Notes: generated by a model not told the origin, from the sequence alone. Shown: positions 52,550-56,530, counted from the stretch's first letter. The stretch: DNA of 64,000 bases from a virus (IMGVR_UViG_2531839301_000007:14596-78595), one strand, 5' to 3'. Made by a program: numbers and translations.

Positions 52550-52889
52550 TTTTTAGTTCAAATAAGCCAGCCCAGTTATTTGCGATGGATTGTTCTACGA
52601 CTGCCATTGCAATATTGGGATTGGTGTTTGACAATTCGAGTAGTTTATGGTAACATGCTTCTATCCCTGATTGGGTGTACGCTTGTTTCCGTTCTTGTTT
52701 GTATTTTACCCACCTTTCGATAATAGGTAAAAAATCTGCCGGGACAAATGATAAATCAAGTTCCTTTTTACGAGATTTACTTCTTTTTCCTGCATCGTAA
52801 CCAGCAAGCCATGATTGTTTGGCTACCTCTTGACAATCAGGATATGTTTTTGCATAATCCTCTGCCTTTTGTACTAAATCCTTTCCCAT
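52425..52889 (-). CDS. Replication-initiator-like C-terminal domain protein
   Basis: WVKYKQERK..Y.......VEQSIANNWAGLF. Confidence 0.55.
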   Translation of the reverse strand: MGKDLVQKAEDYAKTYPDCQEVAKQSWLAGYDAGKRSKSRKKELDLSFVPADFLPIIERWVKYKQERKQAYTQSGIEACYHKLLELSNTNPNIAMAVVEQSIANNWAGLFELKNGTGTQLSISQNQSPGNRKESVERLADLSEGVLQGFAKILD

Positions 52890-53413
52890 AACTTTCCTAC
52901 TCGTTTAAATTCTTCATCATGGGGAACCGGACAATCTTTTATCCAGATCATATCCTTTATCTGCCAATGGGATAGATTAATACTTTTAGGAATAAGAGCT
53001 TTCATATTAGCGAAGAGATTAAGACGAAGAGATTTATTCTTGACTGTTTCAGGGAATAGTCCGATTGCTCTATTCGCTTTTAGAAAAGATTCAATGTCTT
53101 TTTCCGAGTGTGGGGTATAAACAACTCCATCCACATAAGGAAGAATAGTCAGAATACCATCTGCAAGCGCAGTATATATAAAAACGCTTACCTCGTGGTT
53201 GTACGCTAACACATTGGAGTTTTTAATAGCATCCGATAAGATAGCTACTTGATCGGGAAACAGGAGTGGTTCACCACCAGTTATCATCACTTCTTTATAA
53301 TTGAAATGGTCTACTACCGGAAGTTTCGTGAAATCCCATGAATTATTGCAGCACATGGGACATTTATTGGGGCATTGGGTAGTTACCAGCAAACGTAATT
53401 TATCTTTTTCCAT
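52874..53413 (-). CDS. Small radical SAM protein
   Basis: CPNKCPMC (CxxxCxxC) and ITGGEP. Confidence 0.85.
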   Translation of the reverse strand: MEKDKLRLLVTTQCPNKCPMCCNNSWDFTKLPVVDHFNYKEVMITGGEPLLFPDQVAILSDAIKNSNVLAYNHEVSVFIYTALADGILTILPYVDGVVYTPHSEKDIESFLKANRAIGLFPETVKNKSLRLNLFANMKALIPKSINLSHWQIKDMIWIKDCPVPHDEEFKRVGKLWERI

Positions 53414-53682
53414 TACAGAGTGATTTTTTGTGTATATTGTAATTCTCCTGTATAGCCACGCGCTTTCAGTTCATCCATTAGATGCCGTGGAGTAAACTTT
53501 GCTAATTCAGGATTGGTAAAGACCTTCTTCAAATTGTTAGCTGAAGGTTTACTCCTTTTTTTGAAATATTCCTTGCCACAATCTTTGCAATAATCTTGCA
53601 ATCCATCTTCTTTTGAAGCATTTTTCCAAAATTCACTTACTGGAAGTTCTCTTCCACATTTGGGGCATTTTTTTGTTTCCAT
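53413..53682 (-). CDS. Zinc-finger protein
   Basis: KKCPKCG...YCKDC. Confidence 0.7.
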   Translation of the reverse strand: METKKCPKCGRELPVSEFWKNASKEDGLQDYCKDCGKEYFKKRSKPSANNLKKVFTNPELAKFTPRHLMDELKARGYTGELQYTQKITL

Positions 53683-53693
53683 GATTTTTATAA

Positions 53694-54158
53694 TTATAGT
53701 TTCTCTTTTATTCTTGCATATTCACAAATGAGAAGTGCATCACTGATAGCAAGAGTGATACTCTTTATGTATGGGAAGAGTTGTTGGGCTTTAGCTCGGA
53801 GCTTATTCTTCCATATCGTAGTACTATCATCACCTTTAGTTCCCAACTGCAATGCTTTCTGCCATATTTGAGGTGTAACAGTTACAGTAGGGATATCACA
53901 AGCAAGCAATGCCATTTCTAAATGTCCGTAACCTTTTCCAAAGTTGAACATTGCGGAGCCACCTTGCCCCGGCATACCACCTACTTTTTCAAGATAGCAA
54001 ATAGAGTCTTCTTTATGCTTTAGAAGAAATGATAGTACATCTTGCGGAGTGGAAGGCATTTTAATAACTTCTATCACATTAGATGATTCATTGGAGTAGA
54101 CTGCTATACCACCGTTTGTACCGGGGTCAATAGCAATGATTTTAGATTTTGCTTTCAT
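53694..54158 (-). CDS. RuvC-like Holliday junction resolvase
   Basis: IIAIDPG, YLEKV, FNFG, DALLI. Confidence 0.85.
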   Translation of the reverse strand: MKAKSKIIAIDPGTNGGIAVYSNESSNVIEVIKMPSTPQDVLSFLLKHKEDSICYLEKVGGMPGQGGSAMFNFGKGYGHLEMALLACDIPTVTVTPQIWQKALQLGTKGDDSTTIWKNKLRAKAQQLFPYIKSITLAISDALLICEYARIKEKL

Positions 54159-54336
54159 TATCTAATTTATTGATTATTATTTGTGAAAGACGAGCCTTAT
54201 TAGCTTCTCTAAGAGACTTGTTTTCTTTGTAATTGGCAAGTCTTATTTGCCGTGCATACTCTAACTCGGCTCGCATGTGTTTCAAGTCTGCTTTGGTAAA
54301 TAGTTTCTTTTTCATAATCATAATAGAAATGGGCAA
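54142..54336 (-). CDS. Small hypothetical protein
   Basis: Short ORF coupled to resolvase. Confidence 0.45.
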   Translation of the reverse strand: MPISIMIMKKKLFTKADLKHMRAELEYARQIRLANYKENKSLREANKARLSQIIINKLDNESKI

Positions 54337-54408
54337 CCTACTTTCACAAGCGAGTTACCCCAAGATTAAACAAATGTAATTTTAAGTGCAATATTTTTAT
54401 CGTAATTG

Positions 54409-54489
54409 TGGACGGTGCCGGAGTCGAACCAGCCTCACGGATATTGGTGCACCTCACCGTAGTTTCAGCCCACGATAACACAACCGCCC
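54409..54489 (-). ncRNA. tRNA-Ala-like RNA with 16-nt anticodon loop
   Basis: Acceptor GGGCGGT/ACCGTCC with G3:U70 and A73; T arm GCTGG TTCGACT CCGGC. Confidence 0.65.
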
Positions 54490-54533
54490 TTATTTCCCGG
54501 ATACCAAACCAATGGACACCGGGATTTTTATTA

Positions 54534-54653
54534 TCATTCAGCGATAATCGCAAGCTGACCGCAAGCGGCACCATTTTCAATCTCTGACTTTGTAGCTATT
54601 GCCACAGCATAGTCATACCCTAAATTTTCTAACTGTTCTTTAATTTCCTTCAT
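54534..54653 (-). CDS. 39-aa peptide carrying the RlmN-type catalytic AACGQL motif (not in ORF track)
   Basis: Hand translation MKEIKEQLENLGYDYAVAIATKSEIENGAACGQLAIIAE. Confidence 0.8.
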   Translation of the reverse strand: MKEIKEQLENLGYDYAVAIATKSEIENGAACGQLAIIAE

Positions 54654-54672
54654 AACTTTGTAAATTAATTGT

Positions 54673-55455
54673 TTATACTAAATTCACACCTTCAATAATA
54701 CCTTCTCCCAAATGATTTTTTTCAGAAATATTATTAGGGTTTATGGGAGATAGTTTTATGAAGAAGTGCTTTTTATCGAAATATTTCTGAAGTAACTCGG
54801 CATTAAAATCAGATTCATCTACCAGTGTAAGATTAATAGTCGTTTTTAGATTACTTTCAGTCCGTATTCGACCAAGTTCTTCAATAGACATCTTTGATGG
54901 ATATGGGATAAGCCAATTCCGTTTTTGTTCATCAAAACTATGTAGACTGATTTGTAGAGTGATATTATCTTTAATAAAAGAGAAATCACTTCCCTGTATT
55001 CCTATTGTTGAAATGTAATGGTGGGTATTGGGATATACCTTCGATATACGTTCAATAGCTTCCTTTACAGCCTCTATATTCAAAAAAGGTTCACCCATTC
55101 GAGTATAGTTTATTTTAAACTCTTTAGCACTTTCAGGATTAAAACCAGCCTTCTTTATAGCAAAAAAGACTTGTCCCACTATTTCATCGGCTGTTAGATT
55201 CCGATATTTCTTCATATTCCCAGTTGCACAAAATTTGCATCTCACAGGGCAACCGCTCATTGTAGATACTCCGATCATCCATCGTTCTGAACGATTACCT
55301 AAATTGGAATTATCCAAAGAGTTTTGTTTTCTTCCTATTGCATCTTTTGTATAAAATGGGAGAAAGGTATCAGTCGTTTCTACTAACATTCCATCTTCAA
55401 GTTGGAGGCAATACACAACTCCATTCTTGAAATTCTTTTGTTTTTTTATTTCCAT
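54673..55455 (-). CDS. RlmN/Cfr-like radical SAM RNA methyltransferase, N-terminal part
   Basis: SGCPVRCKFCATG, MGEP, ISLH, LSPINP; lacks terminal AACGQL. Confidence 0.85.
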   Translation of the reverse strand: MEIKKQKNFKNGVVYCLQLEDGMLVETTDTFLPFYTKDAIGRKQNSLDNSNLGNRSERWMIGVSTMSGCPVRCKFCATGNMKKYRNLTADEIVGQVFFAIKKAGFNPESAKEFKINYTRMGEPFLNIEAVKEAIERISKVYPNTHHYISTIGIQGSDFSFIKDNITLQISLHSFDEQKRNWLIPYPSKMSIEELGRIRTESNLKTTINLTLVDESDFNAELLQKYFDKKHFFIKLSPINPNNISEKNHLGEGIIEGVNLV

Positions 55456-55568
55456 AGGTATATATAAAAGTTCCCGGATAGGTTATCAAGCTACACCGGG
55501 AGATGCTATTATTAATCAAATAATGGGGCTTTCACCCAACGCCATTCCTTACGATAGCGGATTAGTTA

Positions 55569-55784
55569 TTATTTGAGGAACTTTGAGAATGTCTTGATTG
55601 AACTGTCATTGTCAGTTTTCAGAGATTGAAGTTCCTTGTTTTTTGCAGCTAAATTTTGCATTTGAGCCACATTATCATCCATCTCTGCCTGAATTTCAGC
55701 ATTTAGATTCTCCAAATCCGTTTTTGCTTTAGCGAAATCGGATAAGATACTTTCTCTTCGTTGTTTATAGTCCATAGAGCACAT
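55569..55784 (-). CDS. Small coiled-coil protein
   Basis: 71 aa coupled ORF. Confidence 0.55.
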   Translation of the reverse strand: MCSMDYKQRRESILSDFAKAKTDLENLNAEIQAEMDDNVAQMQNLAAKNKELQSLKTDNDSSIKTFSKFLK

Positions 55785-56530
55785 TATTGTTCAATGATTG
55801 GAATTTCAGGAGTCAATTCACGGATGATTTTCAACTGTTCGTCAATAGCTTTGTTTCGCTCTTGCTCAATTACGACTTCGGCACCGGGAGAGCAGAGAGA
55901 TAATCGAATATTTCTACCATCAACATCAGCGATGATTTCTACTTCGATCACTTCTGCGGAACGTCCTTTGAAAATAGGGATGTTGAGGTTGAAAGCCGCC
56001 GGAAGATTTGAGTTTACTACCTGACTGTAATTGTCAGTCCGGCTACCGTTATCTTCATTACTTCTTTCCAATTTGGAGTCAATACTTGCCTTAAAGTTCT
56101 TCAAGATAGAAACTAACTCCATGTTGTACGCTATATCTGTGAAGAAGGCGCGGTTCATTTTGATGAAGCGGGAAAGTTGTGCTGGTTCCCATGTCTTCTC
56201 AACAGAATTGATGCCAAATTCAACGAACTTCGGATACATGGCTAATGAACCTTGTACTTCTGCCTTGTTGCGTCCGTCAGTTTCATTTGTAATTAGCTTG
56301 ATTGTCATATTCTCGCGATTCACAAGAATATGGCAACGTTTCTGATTGATCTGTTCCGGTTCAGACTTTCTCTTTTTCAAGAACTCTGCAACGCTTCCAA
56401 TCGTGCCACTCAAACTGACTTTTAGTGGTTCCAAAACAGGAAGAACATTCTCTTTGTCCAGTTCAATAACTTTAATAGTTGCTTTCTCCATACCCGGAGC
56501 AAGGTTAATTTGCATTTTTTCGTTTTCCAT
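55784..56530 (-). CDS. Phage hypothetical protein
   Basis: 248 aa. Confidence 0.7.
   Translation of the reverse strand: MENEKMQINLAPGMEKATIKVIELDKENVLPVLEPLKVSLSGTIGSVAEFLKKRKSEPEQINQKRCHILVNRENMTIKLITNETDGRNKAEVQGSLAMYPKFVEFGINSVEKTWEPAQLSRFIKMNRAFFTDIAYNMELVSILKNFKASIDSKLERSNEDNGSRTDNYSQVVNSNLPAAFNLNIPIFKGRSAEVIEVEIIADVDGRNIRLSLCSPGAEVVIEQERNKAIDEQLKIIRELTPEIPIIEQ

Follow-up and report, generated by a model that had tools for sequence, protein, structure and literature searches.

The 64,000-nt stretch of viral DNA analysed here (IMGVR_UViG_2531839301_000007:14596-78595; hereafter the window) belongs to a temperate gut phage, which IMG/VR records as a provirus of 78.6 kb. In the early region of this phage, on the minus strand at 54534-55455, we observed two adjacent open reading frames (ORFs). 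The larger one, ORF1, encodes a 260-amino-acid protein with similarity to the radical S-adenosylmethionine (SAM) enzymes RlmN and Cfr; the smaller one, ORF2, encodes a peptide of 39 amino acids with a cysteine loop of the RlmN type. We consider it likely that the two ORFs encode two chains of one class-A-like (i.e. RlmN/Cfr-type) radical SAM enzyme, in which the peptide docks as the missing part of the barrel. The features that matter for this conclusion are the following.

54673-55455, minus strand: putative large subunit (ORF1), RlmN-like radical SAM core of 260 amino acids, with an ATG start and a TAA stop at 54673-54675
55270-55272, minus strand: codon of Gly62, found at the position of RlmN C118 in the HMMER alignment
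55228-55251, minus strand: codons of the CX3CX2C motif (C69/C73/C76) of the [4Fe-4S]/SAM cluster, from the translation aligned with the RlmN motif
54654-54672, minus strand: intergenic spacer of 19 nt between ORF1 and ORF2, from the sequence
54534-54653, minus strand: putative small subunit (ORF2), peptide of 39 amino acids with its own ATG, TGA stop included, from the translation and orthologous peptides
54561-54563, minus strand: TGC codon of Cys31, equivalent to the methyl-carrying C355 of RlmN and invariant in the peptide alignments A1 and A3

The first-pass annotation of the window had described a 260-amino-acid ORF that carries RlmN core motifs and ends before the last helix, and this was confirmed by the ORF list, the translation and a structural model. 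Translation likewise bore out the downstream ORF in the +1 frame relative to ORF1, with its own ATG and the sequence GAACGQL; its position was given correctly, while the distance, put at 20 nt, is in fact 19 nt. In ORF2 the GAACGQL stretch is followed by AIIAE, which makes up a cysteine loop of the RlmN type, and the peptide as a whole is acidic. ORF1 scored 36.7 bits against Pfam PF04055 (Radical_SAM), above the cut-off of 29.5. Its best NCBIfam model was RlmN TIGR00048, with a score of 78.4 bits lying below the cut-off of 290 and a match beginning at position 101 of the 355 positions of the profile; against the Cfr models (NF000424) the score, 56.4 bits, was far below the cut-off of 530. A phmmer search with ORF1 matched RlmN and Cfr chains in the PDB. 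The cluster cysteines C69, C73 and C76 are invariant in an alignment of 13 diverse split cores (A2; A1 and A3 denote alignments or profiles of the peptide). PADLOC matched the core, the read-through protein and the upstream gene to no defence-system family, and a scan for promoters and terminators found no terminator-like site.

A structural model was built for the single-chain read-through of a relative (L086, with a core 80% identical to that of the window), the TAA codon being read as Gly; L086 was chosen because its two ORFs share one frame. The input alignment for the model combined split cores with fused homologues. The model reached a mean predicted local distance difference test score (pLDDT) of 89.6 and a predicted template modelling score (pTM) of 0.90, with only the artificial linker (residues 253-267) below 50. 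Its peptide portion (266-308) forms a helix (266-280) and a strand (283-286) followed by the cysteine loop. Foldseek ranked RlmN (6FZ6, 3RFA, 4PL1, 5HR6, 5HR7; E-values 7e-15 to 1e-11) and then Cfr (9P0P, 1e-8) far above other radical SAM enzymes. In VIA-align, residues 1-308 of the model were superimposed on residues 80-363 of Escherichia coli RlmN with Z of 26-27 and a root mean square deviation of 2.5 Å over 260-267 residues; Z was 18.8 for Cfr and 14 for the best match outside RlmN/Cfr. According to the model, the peptide corresponds to the last helix, the last strand and the C355 loop of RlmN. The earlier proposal that the peptide supplies exactly the segment missing from the core thus found support in the alignment of the read-through model with RlmN up to residue 363.

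Two elements of RlmN are missing from the pair. RlmN and Cfr are textbook cases of methylation via a methylcysteine of the protein itself, for which one chain provides both essential cysteines. In RlmN the methyl-carrying cysteine is C355, while C118 (C105 in Cfr) is indispensable as it resolves the cysteine-CH2-adenine cross-link, and the C118A mutant traps the protein-RNA adduct in which cysteine and adenine are joined by CH2 (PMC9692996). The HMMER alignment placed Gly62 of ORF1 opposite the C118 position of 6fz6 (Cys) and of 4pl1 (E. coli RlmN, C118A). This glycine is invariant in the 13 cores of A2 and was found in 24 of 24 full-length split representatives as well. The only conserved cysteines of the A2 cores are the three cluster ligands, and the peptide has a single invariant cysteine, Cys31 (A1, A3). 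Also, residue 1 of the L086 model lies opposite RlmN residue 80; therefore, the N-terminal domain (RlmN 1-79) is absent. Of the features of the RlmN/Cfr family, the pair has the CX3CX2C motif, the RlmN/Cfr-type fold (as modelled) and the methyl-carrier cysteine, although on a separate peptide; it has neither the resolving cysteine nor the N-terminal domain, and it does not reach the curated score cut-offs. As both C118 and the N-terminal domain are missing, we file the pair as a class-A-like variant and not as an RlmN or Cfr orthologue. In sequence and model alike, it has the appearance of a class-A-like radical SAM enzyme as far as the first half-reaction is concerned. What was proposed earlier, an RlmN/Cfr-like two-chain enzyme with its C355-like cysteine on a peptide of its own, holds in this form; its identification as an RlmN/Cfr RNA methyltransferase is not supported, given the C118-to-Gly replacement and the missing N-terminal domain. 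Gating of the activity by the peptide, as suggested there, may be possible. The suggested Cfr-type multidrug resistance is unsupported, since scores so far below the Cfr cut-off give no ground for such a claim.

The split could have been an accident of one genome, and the first-pass annotation named a recent 1-bp indel as the alternative explanation. We searched phage genomes with tblastn and observed the pair in Kehishuvirus tikkala, a phage of Bacteroides (262 and 43 amino acids), and in Moorella phage MTATph1 (274 and 40 amino acids); in Vibrio phage D479 a core of 281 amino acids is accompanied by an ORF of 93 amino acids with two tandem peptide modules. The peptide gene is found one or two genes downstream of the core in Yersinia phage P778 and in four Pectobacterium phages (Arno162, Arno18, Wc4 and Wc4-1). 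The split is therefore kept across phages of unrelated hosts. In a large protein collection the core matched more than 2,000 clusters. Its relatives at 75-99% identity, hundreds in number, have 260-262 amino acids and the C-terminus ...EGVNLV, the few longer ones being extended at the N-terminus only. The peptide profile A1, made from six peptides, matched at least 2,730 clusters of 40-65-amino-acid peptides in public data. Among IMG/VR relatives (81-98% identity), 80 out of 80 had a core that ends at a stop codon and a peptide encoded by an ORF of its own, with CSQ in place of CGQ in two of them. At loci from species-representative genomes the peptide was present within the fetched 2 kb in at least 40 of 51; some of these loci reside on contigs of 0.3-1.9 Mb (Lepagella muris, Muribaculaceae, Bacteroides congonensis), which fits prophages. 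The assemblies were labelled Bacteroidota, Firmicutes, Clostridia, Bacilli, Chloroflexi, candidate phyla radiation (CPR), DPANN and others, labels to be read with the reservation that binning of metagenome-assembled genomes may misplace phage contigs. With all 80 close relatives and phages of unrelated hosts carrying both genes, the association of core and peptide goes far beyond chance.

The frame of the peptide with respect to the core varies: in 126 two-gene loci it was +0 in 11, +1 in 21 and +2 in 94, and in 49 of these loci the ORFs are kept apart by stop codons or by a distance above 1.1 kb. The spacing in relatives is -4, 6-21, 37-59 or ∼1150-1260 nt, with genes inside the longest gaps, and every peptide found has retained its own ATG. 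Comparison of the window peptide with close relatives gave per-site synonymous differences (pS) of 0.5-1.0 and nonsynonymous differences (pN) of 0.07-0.13, i.e. pN/pS ∼0.1; the small ORF is under purifying selection at the protein level. A recent indel, a pseudogene and a conserved programmed frameshift are excluded by conservation, by the occurrence of all frames, by the variable spacing and by pN/pS ∼0.1. A +1 slip at GTA-TAA-A that would produce one fused protein is formally possible in the window, where the frame of the peptide is open back to the stop codon of the core; still, with the frame and spacing data above, with the peptide gene one or two genes away in the Pectobacterium and Yersinia phages, and with no fused close relative among the homologues examined, we regard a broken gene or a programmed +1 frameshift as most improbable. 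A prfB-type programmed frameshift was rejected specifically because +0, +1 and +2 all occur, with no constant frame relation. We conclude that selection maintains the pair as a mobile accessory module in phages that differ widely. Its mobility is indicated by a 75%-identical pair that is flanked by the CI-like, ERF, NinB and NinG genes of a lambdoid prophage.

Two further variations of gene structure were seen in relatives. In some peptide genes the whole module or the cysteine loop alone is tandemly doubled (D479, at L003:2300-2581; P0125, P0126 and P0131). In some relatives, such as P0096 (438 amino acids), the called core ORF is extended at its N-terminus by an HNH_3 endonuclease-like ORF, probably owing to the insertion of a homing endonuclease gene immediately before the core gene.

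To place the split in evolution we took the 150 closest representatives (50% clusters) and grouped them according to the residue found seven positions ahead of the CX3CX2C motif. Wherever this residue was Gly in the representatives checked, the C-terminal CGQ motif was absent; these constitute the split class. Representatives with Cys mostly had a fused GGCGQL loop, and those with Ile, Val, Asn, Met, Thr or Ala mostly had a fused GSNCGQ or AACGQ loop, being fused and C118-less. No NCBIfam model covered the Gly, the Cys or the other classes at its cut-off. In a maximum-likelihood tree calculated from the core region, with canonical two-cysteine forms as the root, all C118-less forms fell into one clade with a support of 94 in the Shimodaira-Hasegawa-like approximate likelihood ratio test (SH-aLRT), and the split forms grouped with a small fused clade of the Thr type (SH-aLRT 85). 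This topology, with moderate support, suggests that the loss of C118 preceded the splitting of the gene.

If the pair works as a two-chain enzyme of this kind, the course of the reaction could be as follows. The 260-amino-acid core would bind the [4Fe-4S] cluster and SAM, and the peptide, translated from its own ATG, would dock in the place of the last helix and strand that the barrel lacks, so that the AACGQL loop would bring the single invariant cysteine of the peptide into the active site. By homology to RlmN, this cysteine would be S-methylated by one SAM, the 5'-deoxyadenosyl radical of a second SAM would turn the methylated cysteine into a thiomethylene radical, and the latter would attack an sp2 carbon of an adenine-type substrate. 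Candidate substrates are RNA, to which homology and tRNA-like neighbours point, and a small adenine nucleotide, with which the missing N-terminal domain and the genes of NAD (nicotinamide adenine dinucleotide) and nucleotide enzymes seen near the pair elsewhere would agree. Resolution of the adduct, and probably the substrate too, should differ from those of RlmN and Cfr because there is neither a resolving cysteine nor an N-terminal domain.

Several observations weigh against the two-chain enzyme as we describe it. Docking of the peptide is judged from a single-chain model of a relative, where the fused homologues in the input may bias the result toward the RlmN arrangement. In a comparison of the peptide profile A3 with PDB sequences only chance matches (E >1) were seen and RlmN was not among them, a miss that we attribute to the peptide being too short. 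Finally, with no C118 the canonical cycle cannot close, hence ‘methyltransferase’ may misdescribe the product.

Gene neighbourhoods of relatives were considered next to these data. The contigs of the fused C118-less relatives P0316 and P0304, of P0323 from a second Gly-type subgroup, and of P0252 and P0288 were too short to show neighbouring genes. At L152:2616-8070 the order of genes is NrtR-like Nudix, isochorismatase/nicotinamidase-like, NAPRTase, CTP_transf_like (NMNAT-like), an unknown protein of 241 amino acids, the core and a peptide of 69 amino acids, i.e. the pair closes an operon resembling NAD salvage. PncA-like or NAPRTase-like genes were located within 2 kb of the pair in L138, L139, L140 and L117. 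In the window itself the pair has no NAD genes nearby, and the same applies to the 80 relatives of its clade and to the tikkala, Moorella, D479, Pectobacterium and Yersinia phages. A four-gene variant was observed in 17 of the 51 genome loci and in L087-L092, with a MoaA/viperin-like radical SAM gene and a small SAM methyltransferase gene between core and peptide (L087:3268-4456; also L088-L092, L105, L108-L125 and L137). The radical SAM protein has 255 amino acids and an apparent CX11CX2C motif, and the methyltransferase (phrog_5399) has 148; across assemblies labelled as different phyla (Bacteroidota, Firmicutes) their identities are 58-64% and 49-59%, respectively. The window phage has no homologue of either of these two proteins.

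Downstream of the peptide gene in the window there is one more element of possible relevance.

54408-54489, minus strand: aberrant tRNA-like element, called by ARAGORN at a lowered threshold only, 45 nt after the peptide gene

Its fold has a 7-bp acceptor stem with G3:U70, a canonical T arm and an abnormal D/anticodon body. ARAGORN with default settings made no call of this element, and Rfam gave nothing in 53500-56500 at E up to 1. Of 85 related loci, ∼45 likewise have aberrant tRNA-like elements (68-143 nt, some in tandem pairs) after the peptide gene, unrelated to that of the window; for the lambdoid prophage L010 ARAGORN called a tRNA with an 8-nt anticodon loop (catc). No tRNA-like element was found by the pair in the tikkala, Moorella, Vibrio, Yersinia and Pectobacterium phages, and the element was thus rejected as an obligatory component, being absent from distant split-type phages. 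We take it for a neighbour and a possible substrate, and not for a conserved part of the system. In an 82% relative (L008:3945-6783) the tRNA-like element is directly followed by a tyrosine integrase gene, two small genes and an IS66-type transposase gene, which suggests that this tRNA-like site is a point of integration within the phage genome.

Further from the peptide gene, the surroundings of the pair are those of an early phage region. Upstream there are genes for a Rha/KilAC antirepressor, RecT and a PDDEXK-like nuclease; downstream there are genes for a RuvC-like resolvase, DNA methyltransferases, a small, weakly matching radical SAM-like ORF and, presumably, RtcB, a label taken from the first reading only. 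None of these neighbours indicates a substrate. The small ORF (52874-53413, minus strand; 179 amino acids) is located ∼1.3 kb downstream of the cassette and scored 25.6 bits against PF04055, for which the cut-off is 29.5; it is unrelated to the second radical SAM protein of the four-gene variant. The cassette itself is bracketed by two copies of a hairpin.

54495-54524: 3' copy of the hairpin TCCCGG..CCGGGA, just after the peptide stop
55472-55501: second (5') copy of this hairpin, immediately before the core ATG

The hairpin (TCCCGGATA...ACACCGGGA on the plus strand) has no copies in the 64 kb other than these two, against 0.02 expected. Among relatives, the twin hairpins are shared by the window and the 98% relative L013 only; therefore, they are specific for this lineage and were rejected as a part of the conserved system. 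Intergenic DNA of Bacteroides LoVEphage and BI-TP1 matches the stretch with the upstream copy at 88-90% identity.

As to the target of the enzyme and the fate of the peptide, the evidence can be read in several ways. The target could be a small adenine nucleotide (NAD, adenosine diphosphate ribose (ADP-ribose) or a related compound), which would give the pair a role in phage nucleotide or NAD metabolism or in counter-defence; we propose this tentatively. Such a target would agree with the absence of the RlmN N-terminal domain, with the place of the pair at the end of the L152 NAD-salvage operon, with the PncA- or NAPRTase-like genes near four other loci and with the additional radical SAM and methyltransferase genes enclosed by the pair in 17 of 51 loci. 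On the other hand, NAD genes are absent near the pair in the window, in the clade of 80 relatives and in the named phages, and gene neighbourhood in phages is weak evidence. To our knowledge, such a reaction has no precedent. The target proposed in the first-pass annotation was RNA: a two-chain methyltransferase producing 2-methyladenosine or 8-methyladenosine (m2A/m8A) at A2503 of 23S rRNA or at A37 of tRNA, gated by the peptide and possibly conferring Cfr-like resistance. RlmN and Cfr are indeed the closest proteins in sequence and structure, AACGQL is the canonical form of the RlmN loop, and aberrant tRNA-like genes follow closely in the window, as they do in about half of the related loci, an unrelated lambdoid prophage among them. 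Nevertheless, we think that an enzyme of this type is unlikely: the indispensable resolving cysteine is an invariant Gly, the N-terminal domain (RlmN 1-79) is gone, the scores are low (78 versus a cut-off of 290 bits for RlmN, 56 versus 530 for Cfr), the distant split-type phages have no adjacent tRNA-like element and the peptide is acidic.

A different question is whether the peptide survives the reaction as a subunit. The peptide could become methylene-bridged to an adenine-type target, or be spent once per reaction, with the core being reused with a fresh peptide of 40 residues. It is the very adduct of cysteine, CH2 and adenine that is trapped by RlmN C118A (PMC9692996), and 5hr6 and 5hr7 are among the top structural matches of the L086 model. 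Loss of C118 precedes the split in the tree, where fused C118-less forms are sister to the split clade; two tandem modules exist in some peptide genes (D479, P0125, P0126), and there is no further conserved cysteine in the core or in the peptide. One has to set against this that the modelled peptide supplies a helix and a strand of the barrel, which would speak for tight binding and not for ready exchange; that the part of C118 could be played by another base or by water, leaving the peptide as a small catalytic subunit; and that the key nodes of the tree have SH-aLRT values of 85-94% only, while tandem modules are rare. Consumption of the peptide is thus rather doubtful in our view. Somewhat more doubtful yet is its full version, in which the peptide would be a sacrificial reagent joined through a thio-methylene link to a target adenine (of the tRNA-like transcript or of an NAD/ADP-ribose-type nucleotide), the pair would be a natural peptide-to-nucleobase ligase, and the split would have followed the loss of C118 so that each reaction costs 40 residues and not a whole enzyme. 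Still another option is that the peptide is both substrate and end product, as in ribosomally synthesized and post-translationally modified peptides (RiPPs), with an S-methylated or otherwise modified cysteine and with the core as maturase. One could point to the fact that a short, conserved peptide gene has one or two radical SAM genes and a methyltransferase gene as neighbours, to the tandem core-like modules and to RiPP maturases among the weaker structural matches. We find this option very unlikely, however, as the peptide has its homologue in a structural element integral to RlmN, forms part of the barrel in the model, shows no leader/core organization and is conserved over its whole length; also, Radical_SAM and Fer4_12 were the only domains that Pfam found in the core, with no RiPP recognition element (RRE) or SPASM domain, although small RRE-like elements could be missed.

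Returning to the two-chain, class-A-like enzyme, we see its significance in the following. In a large and widespread phage family the methyl-carrier cysteine appears to have moved to a separate peptide of ∼40 residues, and the second cysteine has been dropped. Either the requirement for a resolving cysteine can be bypassed, or the product is not a methyl group but something else, possibly a covalent peptide adduct; either outcome would extend radical SAM chemistry and would indicate a new phage function in RNA or nucleotide (perhaps NAD) metabolism. Annotation pipelines label the core as ‘radical SAM protein’ or ‘RlmN’ and often overlook the gene of the peptide. In a search of the literature we found no paper on a split or a phage RlmN-like enzyme. 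New in the present analysis are the census of frames and spacings, the pN/pS estimate, the tree-based order of events with C118 lost ahead of the split, the variant with four genes, the repeated occurrence of tRNA-like neighbours and a separate check of the NAD context.

Among known systems the nearest is RlmN, the C2-methyl synthase of 23S rRNA A2503 and tRNA A37 (TIGR00048; PDB 3RF9, 3RFA, 4PL1, 5HR6, 5HR7, 6FZ6). The pair shares with it the CX3CX2C core, the fold (as modelled) and the AACGQL loop after the last helix and strand; unlike in RlmN, the last helix, strand and cysteine loop are a separate product of 39 amino acids, C118 is replaced by Gly, and residues 1-79 as well as the C-terminal tail beyond 363 are absent. 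With Cfr, the C8-methyltransferase of 23S rRNA A2503 and a resistance determinant (NF000424, TIGR04432; PDB 9P0P), the pair has in common the class-A fold and the cluster motif, but it is split, has no equivalent of C105 and is more distant from Cfr than from RlmN. RlmN C118A/S mutants resemble the pair in having the carrier cysteine without the resolving one; yet these are one-chain laboratory proteins that stall on RNA, whereas here the same state is natural and conserved, and the cysteine segment is detachable. Fused phage RlmN-like proteins without C118 (Bacteroides phage Versailles, 335 amino acids; P0304, P0363) belong to the same C118-less branch and are, in the tree, the fused forms closest to the split clade, although they consist of a single chain that carries the cysteine loop C-terminally. 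Finally, short fused phage RlmN-like proteins with both cysteines (Stenotrophomonas phage BUCTxx99, 319 amino acids) are, like the pair, phage-borne and devoid of the N-terminal domain; in contrast to the pair, they retain C118 and a fused GGCGQL loop and so may still run the canonical cycle.

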